30,086 nt of DNA from Alphaproteobacteria bacterium. GTDB taxonomy: Bacteria > Pseudomonadota > Alphaproteobacteria > Rs-D84. The stretch's first letter is position 1; every line of letters begins with the position of its first letter. The stretch covers positions 1-30,086 of the forward strand of contig JAKSSZ010000001.1 of assembly GCA_024402835.1 (NCBI GenBank), given 5' to 3'. Shown in pieces: positions 4,662 through 28,614 of this stretch. The translations under genes were made by a program, and so were the position numbers. Under the pieces are notes generated by a model that made no database searches, was not told the origin of the DNA, and saw only the letters and a program-made list of their open reading frames with translations.

Positions 4662-4706
4662 CTGTTAATCCGTATGTCACTGGTTCGAGTCCAGTTGCCC
4701 GAGCCA
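4662..4706 (+). tRNA. Partial tRNA-Asn(GTT): 3' half only (anticodon loop to CCA), att junction between elements 1 and 2; not an intact gene
   Basis: CTGTTAA loop, TCCGT, T arm ACTGG-TTCGAGT-CCAGT, acceptor TGCCCGA-G-CCA; upstream sequence cannot form the anticodon stem, D arm or acceptor 5' strand. Confidence 0.88.
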
Positions 4707-4716
4707 CAGATTACAA

Positions 4717-4744
4717 GGGGTTCGCAAGAATCCCTTTTTCTTTT
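4717..4744 (+). terminator. Rho-independent terminator after the tRNA fragment
   Basis: GGGGTTC-GCAA-GAATCCC followed by TTTTTCTTTT. Confidence 0.85.
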
Positions 4745-4750
4745 AAAAAT

Positions 4751-4773
4751 CTATATGCTACCTATATGCTACC
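4751..4773. repeat. Tandem 11-bp direct repeat CTATATGCTAC x2, putative integrase arm-type sites
   Basis: Perfect tandem repeat ~45 bp right of the att core; homologous pair at 18495-18514. Confidence 0.65.
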
Positions 4774-5089
4774 AAAAGCGGCTGTTTTTTCACTAAATAT
4801 TTGATATTTTTGAGCATATCAAAAACAACCATATTTTTTACATATTGCCCTGGGAGGGGTGGTGCCCACCATGCGAAATGTGGTTATGGTGTTTTAACTT
4901 ACGCAATGATTTCATTTGACGAATATGATGAACATATCACAAATATTTAATACATATAAATCACACAATGACTTACTGTATGATCAATTGTATACACTAC
5001 AAACATATCGTATTAAAGTGATATTCAATAGTTTTTTGTATATTTTTATCCAATTTTATGTTATAATCTCCTGTAGAGATGGGGAAATC

Positions 5090-18430: not shown

Positions 18431-18448
18431 TCCAGTTGCCCGAGCCAC
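18431..18448 (+). repeat. att core: 18-bp copy of the tRNA-Asn 3' end, junction between elements 2 and 3
   Basis: TCCAGTTGCCCGAGCCAC, identical to 4690-4707. Confidence 0.9.
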
Positions 18449-18457
18449 GAATTCCAA

Positions 18458-18485
18458 GGGATTCAGCAGAATCCCTTTTCTTTTT
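18458..18485 (+). terminator. Rho-independent terminator after the second att core
   Basis: GGGATTC-AGCA-GAATCCC followed by TTTTCTTTTT; stem homologous to 4717-4734. Confidence 0.85.
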
Positions 18486-18494
18486 ACTTTGGTG

Positions 18495-18514
18495 TTTGCT
18501 ACCTATTTGCTACC
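18495..18514. repeat. TTTGCTACC x2 at 11-bp spacing, putative integrase arm-type sites
   Basis: Same position and spacing relative to the core as 4751-4773. Confidence 0.65.
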
Positions 18515-18599
18515 AAAAACAACTATTTTTGTTATGTAAAAGTCTTGAATATTGAGTACTATCTAGTATGATACAAGCTAAGGAAAACAAAGGATTTGC

Positions 18600-21278: not shown

Positions 21279-23198
21279 ATGGCTAATTTATCTAAGATCA
21301 AACGTGACAGAATGATAGAATTTCTGGAACAACTAAAAAAGCAACATTCTGATGACGCATCTATTCGTGCCTTTAATGAGATAGAAAACCAATTAAGAGA
21401 TAAAAAATACGGGCTTGTTTGGGAAGAACATTCCGAACAAGTTGATGATACATTAAAAGAAAACATCCCCGTATTAGTGGCTGATGAAGAACGACGTTTG
21501 TGTAAAGATAAATCTTTGCTTTGGAATTTCATTATCGAAGGCGACAATTTGCAAGCATTATATCTACTAGAAAAAACCCATAAGGGCAAAATAGATTGTA
21601 TTTATATTGATCCACCATATAACACAGGTGCACGTGATTGGAAATATAATAACGACTATGTTGATGGTAATGATGTATATCGCCACAGTAAGTGGCTATC
21701 AATGATGAAAACACGCCTTACAATAGCAAAAGAATTATTAAATCCGGACAATTCTGTTCTCATATGTACAATTGATGAAAAAGAATATATGCATTTAGCA
21801 TGTTTGTTAGAAGAACTATTCCCAACCGCAAAAATGCAAATGGTTAGCAGTGTAATCAATGTAAAAGGAGTGGCTAGGGATAAAGAATTTGCAAGAGTTA
21901 ATGAATACGTATTTTTCATACAAGTGGGGGATGCTTCTGTAGAAAGACTAAATCTACCTTCTGAATGGTTAGGTAACGTCAAATCTTCTGGTCGTGACAA
22001 ATTGCGATTAGGTTCTTTATTAAGATCCGGCAGTAATAGCGAAAGAAGTCATTCTCCTGGATGTTTTTATCCATTATATTTTTCAAAAGACGGCAAATTC
22101 TCACACGCAGGAGAACCTCTTCCTTTAGGGGTATCTACTGACTCAGTCCAGATTCCAGAAGGACTAGTTGCCATATGGCCAATGCATAAAAATGGCTCTG
22201 AAGGGGTATGGCAATACTCCAAATCTGGTTTTGAAAAATTACTTAAAGACGGTTTCGTATTTTTTGGAAAGTTAAAAGATAATAAAATTGGCGTATCTTA
22301 CGCTCCAAAGGGGGTACAAGATAAAATCAAAAAAGGCGAATTCTTAATCAAAGGAACCAGAGAAGACGGTAGCGTAATCATTGATGATTCTGAATATGAA
22401 GCTTCATATATACCTGGCAACCAATGGTCAATTCCTTCACATAACGCCACAGAATATGGAACAAAATTAATACAAGACATCCTGCTTAGCAAACGATTTA
22501 CTTTTCCAAAATCACTATATGCTGTTCATGACGCAGTAAGATTCTTTGTGGCGAGCAAACCAAATGCTATCGTGTTAGATTTCTTCGCTGGTTCTGGCAC
22601 AACTGGCCATGCTGTTAATCTATTAAATGCCGAAGATAACGGTCATCGTACTTGGATTATGGTTACCAACAATGAAATATCAGAAGCAGAAGCCAAAGAA
22701 TTTGAACAACAAGGTATAAAAAAAGGCGATAAAGCGTGGGAAGAAAAAGGTATCGCCAAATATGTTACTTGGCCCAGGACTATATGTAGCATAAACGGCG
22801 TGGATGTTAATGGCAATGCACTAAAAGGCGATTACATTGGCAGCAACATACCTATGTCGGACGGCTTTAACGCCAATGTTAAATATCTAAAATGCGAATG
22901 GACACCAAGAAAACCTCAAGATTATCTGTTAAGTAATGCGCTGGGGTTACACATAAAAGAAATGATCGAATTACAATACGCCATTGAAATTGACAATGTA
23001 AAAAATGTACTGATACTGAATAAAGATGATTTCAAGAACATTGCAGATAACAAGGAAACTTTCGAACAGATTGAAAATGTCTGGGTTAACCAAAATATTA
23101 TCTTTAACTCGACGGAGTTAAAGATTCTTGAATCAAAAAAATACAAATACATCCCCAAAGAATTCTTTGGCCAGGAACTGCGGGAGGCAGCAGAATAA
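21279..23198 (+). CDS. mod: Type III R-M methyltransferase (Mod, beta class)
   Basis: IIEGDNL, IYIDPPYNTG (motif IV) before FTFPKS and VLDFFAGSGTTG (motif I); TAATG overlap with res. Confidence 0.93.
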   Translation: MANLSKIKRDRMIEFLEQLKKQHSDDASIRAFNEIENQLRDKKYGLVWEEHSEQVDDTLKENIPVLVADEERRLCKDKSLLWNFIIEGDNLQALYLLEKTHKGKIDCIYIDPPYNTGARDWKYNNDYVDGNDVYRHSKWLSMMKTRLTIAKELLNPDNSVLICTIDEKEYMHLACLLEELFPTAKMQMVSSVINVKGVARDKEFARVNEYVFFIQVGDASVERLNLPSEWLGNVKSSGRDKLRLGSLLRSGSNSERSHSPGCFYPLYFSKDGKFSHAGEPLPLGVSTDSVQIPEGLVAIWPMHKNGSEGVWQYSKSGFEKLLKDGFVFFGKLKDNKIGVSYAPKGVQDKIKKGEFLIKGTREDGSVIIDDSEYEASYIPGNQWSIPSHNATEYGTKLIQDILLSKRFTFPKSLYAVHDAVRFFVASKPNAIVLDFFAGSGTTGHAVNLLNAEDNGHRTWIMVTNNEISEAEAKEFEQQGIKKGDKAWEEKGIAKYVTWPRTICSINGVDVNGNALKGDYIGSNIPMSDGFNANVKYLKCEWTPRKPQDYLLSNALGLHIKEMIELQYAIEIDNVKNVLILNKDDFKNIADNKETFEQIENVWVNQNIIFNSTELKILESKKYKYIPKEFFGQELREAAE

Positions 23199-25444
23199 TG
23201 TTTTTAGGTGATATTATAGATTTTCAAACAACACATATTGAATCTTTATTAAAAAAGTGCGCAGATCACGAAGAAGTTGTTTTATGTGCCCCGACAGGTT
23301 CTGGCAAAACAGTAATTGCCAGCAGATTTATTGATGAATATCTGGATGAAAATCCAGACACTGTGTTTTTATGGTTATGTCCCGGTGCCGGTGGTTTGGA
23401 AAAGCAATCTCAACAAACATTTGAAGAATTAACATCCGGTATACAAGATGGTGATGTTTACGATTTCATAAATGAACCTAACCCAAGGGGTAAGGTTTAT
23501 TTTATAAATTGGGATAAAATAAATAAAAAATCAAATGTCGTATTACGTGAGGGCGAACATAAGGATTTGATGACAAAAGTACAAGCATGTCATAACAGTA
23601 ATATAAATATATTTATGATGATCGATGAAGAACATAAGTACAGAGATACAGCAAACGAATACATAGCAACCATACAACCTGTACATGTTTTAAGAATTTC
23701 TGCTACCCCTATTGGTAAAGGCGATGCGGAAGAAAAAATCACGGACGACGAAGTAATTTCTGCAGGACTTATTGCCGCAGGTATATCTATTAACGAAGGT
23801 TTGTCTCAAGCCATTCAAGATAATAACAATATAGATGACGACTTACGTTTATTAGAGTTAGCGGACAGCAAACGCAAAGAAGTACAAGCAGAATATAATA
23901 AACTTGGTCTTAATATACGTCCTTTGGTTTTAATCCAATTTCCGAATGGTCGTGAGGAATGGATTGAACGTGTAAAAGTTGCCCTTGCTAAAATGGGCTA
24001 CAGCGAAGAATCTGGATTAGTTACCTCTTGGTTCAGTGGCGACCATCCGGATAATCCGGAAGAAATAACTAAATTAGATGGACAATACGCCTTCTTGTTA
24101 TTCAAACAAGCAATTGCTACTGGATGGGATTGTCCACGTGCTAAAATATTAGTTAAATTACGTGAAGGCGGCACAGAAAGATTCAATATTCAAACGATTG
24201 GACGAATTCGCCGTATGCCACAAAGGCATCACTATGATAATTCAATCATAGATAATTGTTATCTATATACATTAGATAATCAATTCAGTGAAGGCTTGAC
24301 AAATAGCATATCTGATTCTTTTTATCTGTATCAATACAAAAAGAAAAGTAAAGCCCCTGGTATCCAGCTAGTAAAAGAAACCCTGAATGGGAGTGATAGG
24401 TTTGCCGTGGATCCGGAAGCAGTTGTTATGGCGATAAGAAAGGCCATGTTAAAAGAGAGTGATCTGAATAAAAATGGCGTATTAGAAAGAAAAGAATTAG
24501 AAATAACAAAAGGTTATGTTTTTGGCACTATTTTAAAAACAACGGCCATTGAGGGCGTGGCCAGAACAACGCACGATATTAAGACCTTAAATTCTGTTTT
24601 TGGTGGCGAACATGAAATTGATAATCATGAAGACGGCTTTATTATCAGAGATGCAAAAAGAAAAATCGCCGCCTCAATGGGTATTGATGAAAACATATCA
24701 AATAATGCCCTTAGAATTTTGTTCGGTCCGGAAGACAAACAAATGTCACTGCTATCACCCGAGGAACAAAATTTTGAACATAAAAATAAGCTTATTATCG
24801 ATATGTCTTTGCGGGAATACAATGCATTTTTAGTTAATAACAGAGACAGATTAATAGAAACTTTCACTAATGTTAATAAAACAGAAATCGGCGAATTTAA
24901 AGAAACAGAGATCAAAGAATCTGAGTGGGGTATTCCCGTTCAACAATATTATAAACAACACAAAAAAGTACAATCTGTAACCATTTTACAGAAAAATGTG
25001 TTTGAAGGTTATGGTGATAATATTTTGATAGAACCCAACCGTACGGCTTCAGAACAAGCATTTGAAAAGTGGTGTGAGACCTATGATGCTGTGAAATTTG
25101 TTTATAAAAATGGGGATAAAGGCGATGAATTCTTTAGCATCGTATATCGCAAGGCATTTAGACGTAATCATTTTTATCCCGATTATATAATTGAAACTAC
25201 AAATGGGGAAATCTGGATTATTGAAGCCAAGGGGGGCATGTCGTCAGATGGCACATCAAAAAACATTGATGAATATGCTAAAAACAAATTTGATGCCCTG
25301 AAAACATATGCAAAAAAACATCCGGAAATAAAATGGGGGTTTGTGCGCACTTTCGGCCCACGCTTATACCTAAGTAATACAGAATGGTCTGAGGACATGA
25401 GTAACCCGAACATCTGGAAGCCTATTGAGATGTTTATTCCTTAA
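23198..25444 (+). CDS. res: Type III R-M restriction subunit (Res): SF2 helicase plus PD-(D/E)xK nuclease
   Basis: APTGSGKT, IDEEH, GWDCPRAKILVKLR, QTIGRIRR, FYPDYII...IIEAKG. Confidence 0.9.
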   Translation: MFLGDIIDFQTTHIESLLKKCADHEEVVLCAPTGSGKTVIASRFIDEYLDENPDTVFLWLCPGAGGLEKQSQQTFEELTSGIQDGDVYDFINEPNPRGKVYFINWDKINKKSNVVLREGEHKDLMTKVQACHNSNINIFMMIDEEHKYRDTANEYIATIQPVHVLRISATPIGKGDAEEKITDDEVISAGLIAAGISINEGLSQAIQDNNNIDDDLRLLELADSKRKEVQAEYNKLGLNIRPLVLIQFPNGREEWIERVKVALAKMGYSEESGLVTSWFSGDHPDNPEEITKLDGQYAFLLFKQAIATGWDCPRAKILVKLREGGTERFNIQTIGRIRRMPQRHHYDNSIIDNCYLYTLDNQFSEGLTNSISDSFYLYQYKKKSKAPGIQLVKETLNGSDRFAVDPEAVVMAIRKAMLKESDLNKNGVLERKELEITKGYVFGTILKTTAIEGVARTTHDIKTLNSVFGGEHEIDNHEDGFIIRDAKRKIAASMGIDENISNNALRILFGPEDKQMSLLSPEEQNFEHKNKLIIDMSLREYNAFLVNNRDRLIETFTNVNKTEIGEFKETEIKESEWGIPVQQYYKQHKKVQSVTILQKNVFEGYGDNILIEPNRTASEQAFEKWCETYDAVKFVYKNGDKGDEFFSIVYRKAFRRNHFYPDYIIETTNGEIWIIEAKGGMSSDGTSKNIDEYAKNKFDALKTYAKKHPEIKWGFVRTFGPRLYLSNTEWSEDMSNPNIWKPIEMFIP

Positions 25445-25459
25445 ATTCTAAGGATTTCA

Positions 25460-25700
25460 TGTTCCCCCGGAAAACACCAACTGGAAACAAATCCGGGGGT
25501 CCGAGGGCGTTGTTGGCTATATACCGGAATACGAAGTCCGGGCTAACTCAAGACCCCGAAAGTACCGCAGACAATGGCGGGAATCTGGTTGTTATGCAAA
25601 CCAACAGGGAGGCCAGCCATTTGCCCTCCATCGTAACAATCCTTTCGGATTGCCCAGCAGGTCAGGCCGAAGATTTCTGCAATTCTGCTAGCTTGCTACT
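25460..25700 (-). ncRNA. Candidate structured non-coding RNA (~240 nt), family not recognised
   Basis: About 52% GC by hand count in an AT-rich context; several hairpins and a long-range helix; GAAA tetraloop and G-U pairs favour the minus strand; dedicated promoter. Confidence 0.6.
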
Positions 25701-25703
25701 AAC

Positions 25704-25732
25704 ACTATAAACGCAAGACATTGAAAAATCAA
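25704..25732 (-). promoter_or_regulatory. Sigma70 promoter driving the candidate ncRNA
   Basis: Minus strand TTGATT (25732-25727)-17 bp-TATAGT (25709-25704); no plausible minus-strand CDS downstream. Confidence 0.65.
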
Positions 25733-25737
25733 AGAAC

Positions 25738-28614
25738 CTACCCCTTTGGGCACCAATATTTTTGGCAATATGCATGCATGTCGCAGTTGGTGCAGCGTGT
25801 CTCGTTCCTTTTTCTCATGGAATAATCTTTTGCTTCAATTTTATGCACAACAGCAGTAACTTCACCAATAGTTTTTGCTATGGCTGATTCATTTCGTGGG
25901 AAAGTAACATATGGGACACCATCCTCTGCATTTGTATAGTAGAGATGCATATTATCAACTTTTTCGCCATATTTTTCTTCTACAATATGTGCATAAATTT
26001 CCAATTGCCGTTTGTACCGTTTCAACTCATCCTTGCCTTCATCAGAGTTTATATCTGGTTTCTTCTCGGCCTTAAAATCGACAATATCTACATGTCCCGC
26101 TTCTTTACGGATCAAATCAATCGTTCCTTTAAGATTATAATCCTTTTCAATAAAAGACACGTCTACTTCTGCTTCCTTAACCCTATCCCAATCGTTTTGT
26201 TCACGCTCCGCATAGTTTAGAACCTGTCGTAAAGCATCAAGACGAACGGGTTCACTCAAGAATAAGTGTTCTTTCTTTTTAATATCTTCATAATTCTTAT
26301 TCAACCAGGTTTTAATATTCTCAGCGGTTACCGCTTTTGTCCGTCCATTTATAATGGCCTTGTGTATATCTTCGATGGTTTGATGAACCAATGTACCAAA
26401 TATGATGCTGCCTTGGCGAACCGGGGCGAACCCAAGTTCTTTGAAAAACTTATATTGAACAGGACAGTTCTCATACACAAGTATGTGCGATGTAAAAGCA
26501 TATTCATTTTTGATATTAGTTGGCTTGATTTTCTCAAGTTCAATCCTCGCATATTCAGCCGAAGTAACACTTCTCCAATCTGTAGCTGCACTATATGACT
26601 CAATAAATTTTCTGCTTGGTATACGTCGTCCTTGTACTTGTTCTGGGCAACTCAAACACAATAAATTCTGTGCACGAGAATACGCAGTATAGTAAAGGCG
26701 CATAAAATCAAAGTTTTTTGTTTTCTCTATAGGTTCAAACGGCTTTTTATGATAAAATTCGCTTTGTAGAATTTCATCAAGTTCTGTATATTGTTTGCGT
26801 GGCGATTCCCACAAAGAACACACAAACACGACGGGGAACTGCAAACCTTTAGATTGATGTATCGTCATAAACGACACAAAACCAGAGGGTGCATACTCTG
26901 ATTCGTCTTCGTACTCTTCAATGCCGCCCCCATACAGAAAACACAAATAATTCACATAGAATTTCTTTAGTGCAGACCCAATATTCTTTGCCGTAAAAAC
27001 GTTTATATTTTCAAGGTATTCAAATTTGGTCAGCATTTGAGTAAATCTGGCAAGATTTCTGGCTGGACGTCCATCATGGATATTTGCCACGGCATTATCA
27101 CCCAAGTATTTTGCAAACACATCAAACTGAAACAGTTTGTAAAACAAACCTGATAAAGCATAATCCAATGAATGTTTTTCAAGTGCTGCATGTTTTTGTA
27201 TCCGTTCATGCACAAAGTCACGCAATTTACCATCCTTGCTCATGGCGTCTTTAAACTTAATTATGCAAGATTCTATGTATCTTTTATAATCGATATCAAA
27301 TTCATTTTCTTCAAAATAATTGTAATAAAGCACACATATTGCACCAACTGCTAACTGTATTTCCTCGCGCTGAAAGAAAAGGTTTGAACGGGGCGAATAG
27401 ACGTGAATTTTTTTACTTTCCAGATAATTTGACAATTCAATAGCATGTGGATTTCGAACAGAACGAAATAAAAAAACGACCTGATTCAAGTCAGTAATAA
27501 TTCCACACCGCTGCATGTCTTTGAGAAATTCTACAATTTCTTCGCACCAAGCAGAGGATCCTGTAGCAGAGACTCTCAAAACGGATGGATATTCTCGGTG
27601 TTGTACTTCTGTGTCAGGATCTGCGACAACCATTTTGTCAAATCGATACTGTTCACCTGGGGTTTCACCGGTCCAATCCTGCTGTTTCATCCAATTATTA
27701 TAAAAATCGATTATGCCAGAATGAGAGCGATAGTTTTTTGTAAGTTCTATACGAGTACAGTGATCAAAATTATGCTCAAATTCAAGGATATTACGAATTG
27801 TTGCCCCACGGAACCGATACAAACCCTGATCATCATCACCCACAACACAAATATTTTGTTCAGGGTTAAGCATTTTCAAAATGATACGTTCTTGAATAGA
27901 ATTAGTGTCTTGATATTCGTCAATCATAAAATATTTGTACCTTGTACGTAAAATCTCAAGAACATCAGGATTATTTTCAAGCAACATCAAAAGTTCATAT
28001 TGGATCTTGGAAAAATCCAGCGCATTTTGTTCTTCCAACAATTCTTCGTACGCTCTATATATGGCGGCCAAATTATGAACCGCAGGAATTGTGCTTTTCT
28101 CTAAATCAGAAACGGATAGAGCTTCTTCAGAGACTTTATTAACCCAAGATGCAATAGTTCCTGCCTGCTTCCACAATCCCCCCGAACCAATAACCGATGC
28201 GGTATCATCAAGACTACGGAATTTGTATATATTCTTGTAAATCATATATTGTTGATCAAACTGATCCCAAATACTATAATTGCGTTTTAATCTGGTACAA
28301 TCTCTAAATTCTTCAAGTATGTTTAAAAAGATGGAATGTAAGGTCCCGACACAGAGATCATTTATATTTACTTTTAGTTTGGCTTCATAAACCCGATTAG
28401 AAATACGAGTAATAAGCTCTCTGGCGGCTTTTTCCGTAAAAGTTGCAATAAAGATATTTTCTGGTGTGGCCAGTTCGTCCGCTAAAAGGTGATATACACG
28501 CTCAACCAACGTAAATGTTTTACCAGAACCGGGTCCGGCTATAATAAGCACAGGGCCACTAATAGTATCAATTGCCCGTTGCTGATCTTCATTCGGCGGC
28601 AGTCTTTTGGACAT
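25738..28614 (-). CDS. UvrD/PcrA-like SF1 helicase fused to a C-terminal PD-(D/E)xK nuclease with 4-Cys Fe-S staple (AddB/AdnB/Cas4-like)
   Basis: AGPGSGKT, IDEYQDTN, VGDDDQGLYRFRGA, NYRS, TIHQSKGLQF, YTAYSRA; ENCP...GTIDLI..IVDFK..QLEIY...CTNCDMHAYC; SD GGGAG. Confidence 0.9.
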   Translation of the reverse strand: MSKRLPPNEDQQRAIDTISGPVLIIAGPGSGKTFTLVERVYHLLADELATPENIFIATFTEKAARELITRISNRVYEAKLKVNINDLCVGTLHSIFLNILEEFRDCTRLKRNYSIWDQFDQQYMIYKNIYKFRSLDDTASVIGSGGLWKQAGTIASWVNKVSEEALSVSDLEKSTIPAVHNLAAIYRAYEELLEEQNALDFSKIQYELLMLLENNPDVLEILRTRYKYFMIDEYQDTNSIQERIILKMLNPEQNICVVGDDDQGLYRFRGATIRNILEFEHNFDHCTRIELTKNYRSHSGIIDFYNNWMKQQDWTGETPGEQYRFDKMVVADPDTEVQHREYPSVLRVSATGSSAWCEEIVEFLKDMQRCGIITDLNQVVFLFRSVRNPHAIELSNYLESKKIHVYSPRSNLFFQREEIQLAVGAICVLYYNYFEENEFDIDYKRYIESCIIKFKDAMSKDGKLRDFVHERIQKHAALEKHSLDYALSGLFYKLFQFDVFAKYLGDNAVANIHDGRPARNLARFTQMLTKFEYLENINVFTAKNIGSALKKFYVNYLCFLYGGGIEEYEDESEYAPSGFVSFMTIHQSKGLQFPVVFVCSLWESPRKQYTELDEILQSEFYHKKPFEPIEKTKNFDFMRLYYTAYSRAQNLLCLSCPEQVQGRRIPSRKFIESYSAATDWRSVTSAEYARIELEKIKPTNIKNEYAFTSHILVYENCPVQYKFFKELGFAPVRQGSIIFGTLVHQTIEDIHKAIINGRTKAVTAENIKTWLNKNYEDIKKKEHLFLSEPVRLDALRQVLNYAEREQNDWDRVKEAEVDVSFIEKDYNLKGTIDLIRKEAGHVDIVDFKAEKKPDINSDEGKDELKRYKRQLEIYAHIVEEKYGEKVDNMHLYYTNAEDGVPYVTFPRNESAIAKTIGEVTAVVHKIEAKDYSMRKRNETRCTNCDMHAYCQKYWCPKG

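Follow-up and report, generated by a model that had tools for sequence, protein, structure and literature searches.

What does the GC-rich block between two convergent genes encode? In the window (the whole 30,086-nucleotide stretch that was analysed), such a block separates the stop codons of a type III restriction gene (res) and of a UvrD/PD-(D/E)xK helicase-nuclease gene (Table 1). A preliminary description, made from the sequence, had placed there a single unrecognised structured RNA of about 240 nt with its own minus-strand promoter, and had suggested it as a partner of the helicase-nuclease or as an antisense regulator of res. The block (25445-25737) displayed a GC content of 52%, about 4 standard deviations above the genome mean (32.7%, with a standard deviation of 4.6% in 250-nt windows), and was one of about nine islands reaching 50% GC in the 802-kb assembly. 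Window DNA from about 21750 onward was missing in 40 genomes of the same genus.

Table 1. Position of the features of the block and of its flanking genes in the window.
Feature	Position	Strand	Evidence
Type III restriction res gene, convergent (flank, outside the RNA)	23198..25444	+	Pfam ResIII
RNA2, 5'-truncated (3' two-thirds kept)	25455..25556	-	core 89% identical to the free-standing L077/G676 copy
ORF83, 83 codons, accidental frame across the block, not a gene	25459..25710	+	codon-position pattern, no relatives
RNA2 terminal GC-rich stem, no U-tract after it	25508/25499 to 25464	-	
RNA2 CCGGA/UCCGG hairpin	25541-25524	-	pair probability >0.94
Deletion junction, GGTT microhomology on both sides	25553..25557	-	alignment A3
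Hairpin B, CCGC-N8-GCGG, read-through region after module A	25565..25580	-	pair probability 0.94-0.99 in both variants
Module A, intact copy without U-run terminator	25588..25702	-	covariance model R2, 138.6 bits (by construction); covariation in alignment A7; MFE -43.5 kcal/mol
Module A GGAGG/CCUCC hairpin	25629-25608	-	module A model
Module A variable hairpin, GNRA type in the window	~25654-25635	-	pair probability >0.94
Module A closing stem, 12 bp	25696-25685 with 25607-25596	-	all 12 pairs covary
Sigma-70-type promoter of module A: TTGATT (-35), 17-nt spacer, TATAGT (-10)	25704..25732	-	consensus scan and homology to the L096/L095 promoters (TTGACT-17-TATACT)
UvrD/PD-(D/E)xK helicase-nuclease gene (flank, outside the RNA)	25738..28614	-	Pfam

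Promoter, known RNAs and coding potential

The minus-strand promoter of the preliminary description was present. A consensus scan alone returned such sites at chance level (3 sites versus 3.4 expected); the -35 element, the spacer and the -10 element of this one were homologous to those of other members of the RNA family presented below (L095 and L096). Derivation from an ancestral methyltransferase promoter was considered and dropped, as the spacer, the -10 element and the start region fit the promoters of that family.

The block also proved to be as unrecognised as first described. No Rfam 15 family reached its gathering score in the window. With the threshold relaxed to E ≤ 10, the highest-scoring match (21.6 bits) was a CRISPR repeat outside the block, with nothing meaningful on the block itself. 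Rfam matches on the RNA were likewise absent from related loci, L065 and L086-L091 (E ≤ 10; E ≤ 0.01) and L095-L101 (E ≤ 1). ARAGORN detected neither a tRNA nor a tmRNA in the block. The RNase P RNA (C72, 188 bits) and the two-piece tmRNA (C110, 144 bits) of the genome were both found at other sites, so that the block is not the genome's copy of either. The model of the small SRP RNA (RF00169) did not match the block even at E ≤ 10. The same model found nothing in the whole 82%-complete assembly (G000), where the SRP RNA gene has either diverged or escaped assembly.

Other islands of at least 50% GC were seen in G000 (C12:1049-1384, C23:1016-1320, C95:5301-5738, C124:8494-8769, C137:2953-3354, C149:2462-2745 and C1:1-265). 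None of them was recognised by Rfam at E ≤ 0.01, only C13 holding tRNAs, and they may be further unrecognised RNAs or foreign DNA.

The absence of a credible coding sequence, which had also been claimed, was upheld. A plus-strand frame of 83 codons (ORF83) spans the block and follows an AAGGA Shine-Dalgarno-like sequence located 4 nt 5' of its ATG, but its variation spoke against a protein. Compared with a 95%-identical relative (L038-L040), 13 nucleotide substitutions, causing 10 amino-acid changes, were spread evenly over the codon positions (5/3/5) and therefore gave no coding signal; in L065, the frame was shortened to 52 aa. Pfam held no match to ORF83, and phmmer against 1.8 billion representatives retrieved only its own two look-alikes at the same locus. 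Six-frame translation of the block displayed no other long frames. An 83-aa protein product was considered extremely improbable on these grounds.

Module A, a structured small-RNA family

Module A, of which the window holds an intact copy, is a structured small-RNA family of about 110 nt, absent from Rfam and previously undescribed. Members were collected with blastn, using a long form of the RNA (described below) against all 328 genomes of the order, which gave partial matches. The best of them (L087, G666) displayed a TTGACT-17-TATACT promoter, an RNA of about 100 nt, a 10-bp closing stem and a U7 tail; matches in L088 and L090, inside apparent protein-coding sequence, were discarded as chance. 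Four sequences then served to build a covariance model (R2), which detected a complete copy in G467 with a score of 92 bits; blastn with the G467 copy added two copies each from G691, which belongs to a different genus, and G042, which belongs to a different family. A weak third G691 copy was recovered by R2 with filters off. The R2 score of the window copy is high by construction, and independent copies scored 42 to 98 bits. The sample remained small, with ten sequences from about six lineages, found in five of the approximately 330 species of the order. No copies were obtained from the plasmid, phage and IMG/VR collections, and a metagenome scan with a 22-mer of module A returned nothing.

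All copies share a conserved core around UGCAGAAAUYUUCGGCC. The core signature (UGCAGAAA..CGGCC, ACGAUGGAGGG and GGCCUCCC) was present in the window together with a fully paired closing stem, and the UGCAGAAA stretch was invariant across module A and predicted to be single-stranded. In the alignment of the ten copies (A7), which was fitted to the covariance model and hence favours pairing, 91.8% of the cells paired (75.0% in shuffled alignments), changes on both sides occurred in 21 of 31 pairs (9.7 in shuffled alignments), and the covariation score reached 0.508 (0.196 when shuffled, 0.04-0.09 with slid partners). None of 500 shuffles matched A7 on any of five measures. An unfitted MAFFT/RNAalifold alignment already displayed three compensatory and three one-sided changes in the closing stem. 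Folded alone, module A of the window had a minimum free energy of -43.5 kcal/mol (z = -3.8); the 251-nt fold of the whole block was unremarkable and alike on both strands (z = -2.15 and -2.10 for the minus and the plus strand, respectively).

Most local elements of the structure first proposed were recovered. All the strings quoted were located and can pair as described, the GNRA, CCGC/GCGG and CCGGA/UCCGG hairpins had pair probabilities above 0.94, and the minus-strand orientation was backed by covariation and by G-U pairs, those of the closing stem in the window being A-C mismatches on the plus strand. The long-range architecture was not retained. The helix GAGGGC..UGGCUG/UAGCCA..GCCCUC had a pair probability of about 0, carried two mismatches in L038 and spanned units that relatives encode as two distinct genes, while the UGGUU/AACCA hairpin thought to be enclosed by it had a further, third mismatch in L038. 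The CUAGCAG/CUGCUGG pairing was superseded by the covarying closing stem (Table 1).

Module A copies have the form of independent transcription units. A promoter-like site was found at a fixed distance in all ten copies, ending about 6-8 nt before the RNA. A U-rich tail lies directly 3' of the closing stem in all seven copies outside the window lineage, so that in other genomes this stem also serves as an intrinsic terminator. The closing stem of the window, L038 and L065 is instead followed by CAUAACAAC, with no U-run, and the window copy was thus regarded as a read-through variant of module A. No conserved small open reading frame was found in module A: frames through the conserved AUGGAGGG shift among members, so that no peptide is conserved. 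Complementary sites for the conserved stretch were searched within 3 kb of each copy, and the best duplexes were no better than those of shuffled seeds.

The distribution of module A was sporadic, some species harboring several copies. Most copies oppose their flanking genes and sit in a gap between co-oriented genes. The upstream gene convergent with the copy was a portal-LPD3 fusion in L087, a portal-LPD13 fusion in L104 and a PBECR1 protein in L103, while three copies within 2.7 kb (positions 3821-6503 of L102, G691:C6:34500-44500) bracketed an LPD3-PBECR1 gene. LPD3, LPD13 and PBECR1 are domains of phage polyvalent proteins, PBECR1 being a nuclease domain of the BECR fold (PMC5512222). Polyvalent-protein genes adjoined module A in four of six independent contexts. 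In G467, the copy is flanked by a tRNA gene and the tmRNA gene. The helicase adjoined module A only in the window lineage, and in none of the seven copies outside it, which were located in prophages or next to tRNA/tmRNA genes.

A link between module A and nuclease-bearing polyvalent-protein genes is tentatively put forward from these contexts. Its usual site would be opposite the 3' end of phage portal-polyvalent-protein genes (LPD3, LPD13 or PBECR1), in convergent orientation. The family would most likely consist of small RNAs of mobile elements with a regulatory or protein-binding role, the UGCAGAAA stretch and the CCUCCC element presumably forming the working surfaces. If the association with polyvalent proteins holds, it would suggest that toxins injected by phages are controlled at the RNA level. 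As a separate observation, the L102 copies adjoin a HigA-like antidote gene (dnstrm_HI1420) and a 92-aa partner.

Fusion of module A with a truncated RNA2

Read against the loci of relatives, the block is a mosaic: a 240-nt deletion has brought the intact module A into contact with a second unit, RNA2, which is truncated. The RNA of about 240 nt in the preliminary description was accordingly confirmed in part: it is structured, has its own promoter, and its 5' part of about 110 nt is supported by covariation, but it is a deletion fusion of two modules and not a single unit. The locus offers an example of how an apparent GC-rich "single RNA" may be a fusion of this kind.

Sister strains carrying a longer spacer (L065-L068) were located via the 52-aa frame in the phmmer scan, and their gene order is the same as in the window. 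In L065 and L068, the spacer is 529 nt long and consists of the 5' part of the window block, 240 extra nt and the 3' part of the window block (alignment A3). The extra DNA encompasses a third unit (RNA3), an intrinsic terminator, a promoter (P2) and the 5' 55 nt of RNA2. The terminator-like stem of L065 is followed by UUUGUCUUUGU and has the intrinsic-terminator form on the minus strand only, and P2 (TTGATA-17-TATACT) lies in an AT-rich stretch. Module A and RNA2 are therefore separate in the sister strains, with RNA3, the terminator and the second promoter between them. As L077 and L065 share P2 and the RNA2 5' part of about 55 nt that is absent from the window, the ancestral state is the long form, from which the window and L038 derive by deletion. 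The window lineage lost the 240 nt between GGTT microhomologies.

RNA2 occurs alone in L077, a locus obtained from a metagenome pattern scan and 100% identical to G676, a different species of the same genus as the window. There it is convergent with a Type ISP restriction-modification gene, among a truncated helicase fragment, a DUF4379 gene, a GmrSD gene and an integrase fragment. Between the full-length copies of L065 and L077, the promoter was 79%, the core 89% and the middle 53% identical, the middle still forming a hairpin. Helix H1 of full-length RNA2 (9-10 bp) buries an AAAGGAA motif and includes a U-A to C-G change between L065 and L077, and the hairpin CC[G/A]G-ACCC-C[C/U]GG passes through G-C, G-U and A-U pairs in a compensatory manner. 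RNA3 of L065 and a free-standing copy in L086 differed by seven compensatory and three one-sided changes among 27 pairs, none of which was broken. Short RNA2-like units with U-tails were found in L086 and L087, and in L086 RNA3 and the short unit come after a portal-PBECR1 fusion. An RNA2 model (R1) run against 150 genomes of the genus retrieved a single weak match, AT-rich and terminator-like. Downstream of module A, the motif of about 28 nt containing hairpin B recurs in G471 and G681, in G471 within a hairpin followed by a U-run.

A short frame was observed in full-length RNA2 (L065:4925-4990, minus strand; L077:6270-6325, plus strand). It comprises 13 codons, begins 5 nt after AAAGGAA with AUG in L077 and AUU in L065, and displays the peptide pattern xLAxxGDxxxFLS with three synonymous third-position changes, the Shine-Dalgarno-like motif before it being buried in H1. 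It could be a leader peptide or a chance frame, and was taken out of the window by the deletion.

Like the closing stem of module A in the window, the RNA2 remnant lacks a U-tract, and no terminator was found between the promoter and res. Since neither unit is followed by a U-run, transcription should pass hairpin B and the RNA2 remnant and run antisense into the 3' end of res, and the module A promoter would now make a chimeric read-through RNA.

Neighboring genes, rival explanations and comparison with known systems

Eight loci encoding homologues of the helicase-nuclease (L043, 78% identity; L041 and L042, 77%; L044, 73%; L045 and L046, 66%; L035, 63%; L036, 46%) harbored neither the RNA nor a GC-rich block. 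All eight carry a co-oriented N6_N4 methyltransferase gene 50-65 nt 3' of the helicase, followed, wherever the contig continues, by a gene of about 890 aa (ResIII/TnsA-like). L041 has a divergent Tiamat TmtA gene upstream as in the window, which makes the loci syntenic. The mod and res genes of the window are unrelated to the methyltransferase/Res-like pair linked to the helicase, and belong to a widely transferred type III restriction-modification cassette, 73-95% identical across many gut taxa.

Two other origins of the block were tried and rejected. Inversion by the neighboring resolvase was discarded, no inverted repeats being found between the block and the mod upstream region and the window mod/res not being orthologous to the helicase-linked pair. 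For a remnant of lost methyltransferase or Res-like genes, tblastn gave a chance-level match (E = 0.03) that overlapped the real res C-terminus.

Several features of these neighbors were recorded in passing. The helicase, the N6_N4 methyltransferase (about 580-670 aa) and the ResIII protein of about 890 aa with a TnsA-like N-terminal nuclease form, in that order, a conserved three-gene operon (L041:4001-10889, L043, L045, L035:3001-8859 and L036), which adjoins Tiamat TmtA in L041; the window helicase has lost both partner genes. The helicase-nuclease gene of sister strains is broken and reads as two frames (L038:6280-9146, 751 and 217 aa; L065:5347-8219, 359 and 592 aa) and TmtA is also broken in L065 (8373-10990), the locus decaying in part of the population. 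The central part of mod (window 21860-22495) does not align with L038 and L065, with flanks about 92% identical, a pattern consistent with an exchange of the target-recognition domain. Fuller islands with the same type III system (L076:7028-11207; L047:6357-10244) continue past res with HNH_3, a gene of about 226 aa, variable cargo (DarT-DarG in L076, an AAA_14/DUF4143 ATPase in L047) and an Arm-type tyrosine integrase, a half that the window does not have.

The RNA was initially proposed to serve the co-oriented helicase-nuclease as its own guide, scaffold or antitoxin within a new RNA-associated defence module, and its position directly 3' of the helicase on the same strand, in a defence island with type III restriction-modification and Tiamat TmtA, fits such a role. 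This claim was contradicted by all the comparisons and abandoned as very improbable, because a methyltransferase gene occupies the corresponding place beside all eight homologues (46-78%), none of the seven RNA copies outside the lineage lies beside this helicase, and the RNA is kept in sister strains although their helicase is frameshifted. The adjacency would rather be an accident of island rearrangement. Antisense control exists in some restriction-modification systems, and the fused RNA of the window could mainly act as a cis-antisense regulator of the convergent res, or by transcriptional interference with it. The interval from promoter to res is without a terminator, and RNA2 is convergent with a restriction gene in two islands (res here, Type ISP in L077). 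The support, however, comes from these two contexts only, six res homologues (74-92% identical) have no block downstream, and elsewhere its own terminator halts module A short of the convergent gene. This function was therefore judged unlikely.

A better contender, possible but not favored, is that the family is real while the window copy is an inert relic, the junction debris of recombined defence modules. Block divergence was 5.2% from L038, with 4.9% at neighboring synonymous sites, and 5.4% and 8.3% for the two block halves from L065, with 4.0-5.5% at synonymous sites; being at or above the neutral rate, it gives no evident sign of constraint on the window copy. The loss of the terminator, the 240-nt indel polymorphism among near-identical strains and the decay of flanking genes in sister strains point the same way, but module A retains its promoter, all core motifs and a fully paired closing stem, and the six substitutions that distinguish the window from L038 at paired positions all preserve pairing. 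A purely DNA-based role, with the block serving for recombination or attachment or simply terminating transcription in both directions instead of being an RNA gene, would agree with its location at module junctions near truncated genes, with the copy lying between tRNA and tmRNA genes (classic integration sites) and with hairpin B lying within a terminator-like hairpin elsewhere. Strand-specific G-U pairs that become A-C mismatches on the other strand, conserved promoters at a fixed distance, U-runs on one strand only and the lack of inverted or direct repeats linking the block to the island ends make this quite improbable. The block is instead probably a patchwork of short RNA genes, each a transcription unit in its own right, which are carried about by prophages and defence islands among small-genome gut or rumen Alphaproteobacteria. 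An RNA-guided helicase-nuclease defence system is hence removed as a lead, and is replaced by a covariation-supported small-RNA family, absent from Rfam, in prophages and defence islands of these uncultivated bacteria.

Short units with their own promoter and intrinsic terminator among phage genes are known from phage 'moron'-type elements and from the lambda OOP RNA. Module A resembles them in a base composition unlike that of its neighbors, in opposing the flanking operon and in being convergent with the 3' end of the upstream gene. It has no sequence or Rfam relationship to them, most of its copies stop before the convergent gene so that antisense overlap is not the rule, and, unlike these units, the family is modular, with A, RNA3 and RNA2 in varying combinations. 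Module A also shares features with the trans-acting AbcR and alpha-r small RNAs of Alphaproteobacteria and their CCUCC anti-Shine-Dalgarno motif, namely a length of about 100 nt, its own promoter and terminator and a conserved CCUCCC. It differs from them in that no match to those Rfam families was obtained, that its CCUCCC is paired with GGAGG in the model, and that it occurs sporadically and follows mobile elements rather than the core genome.

Two types of toxin-antitoxin system offer further parallels. In type I systems such as RatA/txpA and SR4/bsrG, the antisense RNA overlaps the toxin gene at the 3' end. Like these, module A is a small structured prophage RNA convergent with a gene of toxic activity, but its neighbor encodes a large polyvalent protein rather than a small hydrophobic peptide, and no conserved overlap or complementarity was found for it within 3 kb. 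The RNA antitoxins of type III systems (ToxI) are tandem direct repeats located upstream of an endoribonuclease gene and co-transcribed with it. By analogy, a structured RNA beside an encoded endoribonuclease might bind and neutralise it; unlike ToxI, the block is without tandem direct repeats and, in prophage contexts, module A lies downstream of the nuclease gene on the opposite, convergent strand. A broader reading, in which A, RNA3 and RNA2 would be interchangeable RNA cassettes travelling with the toxin-domain C-termini of polyvalent proteins (PBECR1, LPD3, LPD13) and with restriction genes, and acting as RNA antitoxins or expression brakes for those nucleases, was considered improbable. 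If true, it would describe an RNA-based layer of immunity against injected phage weapons, possibly captured by defence islands.

Apart from the block, a repeat of about 90 nt was noticed in the window (18431-18521 and 4690-4789) and elsewhere in the genome (G000:C87:162-216). It was also present in other genomes of the genus (G007, G014, G027 and G036), sometimes in multiple copies.
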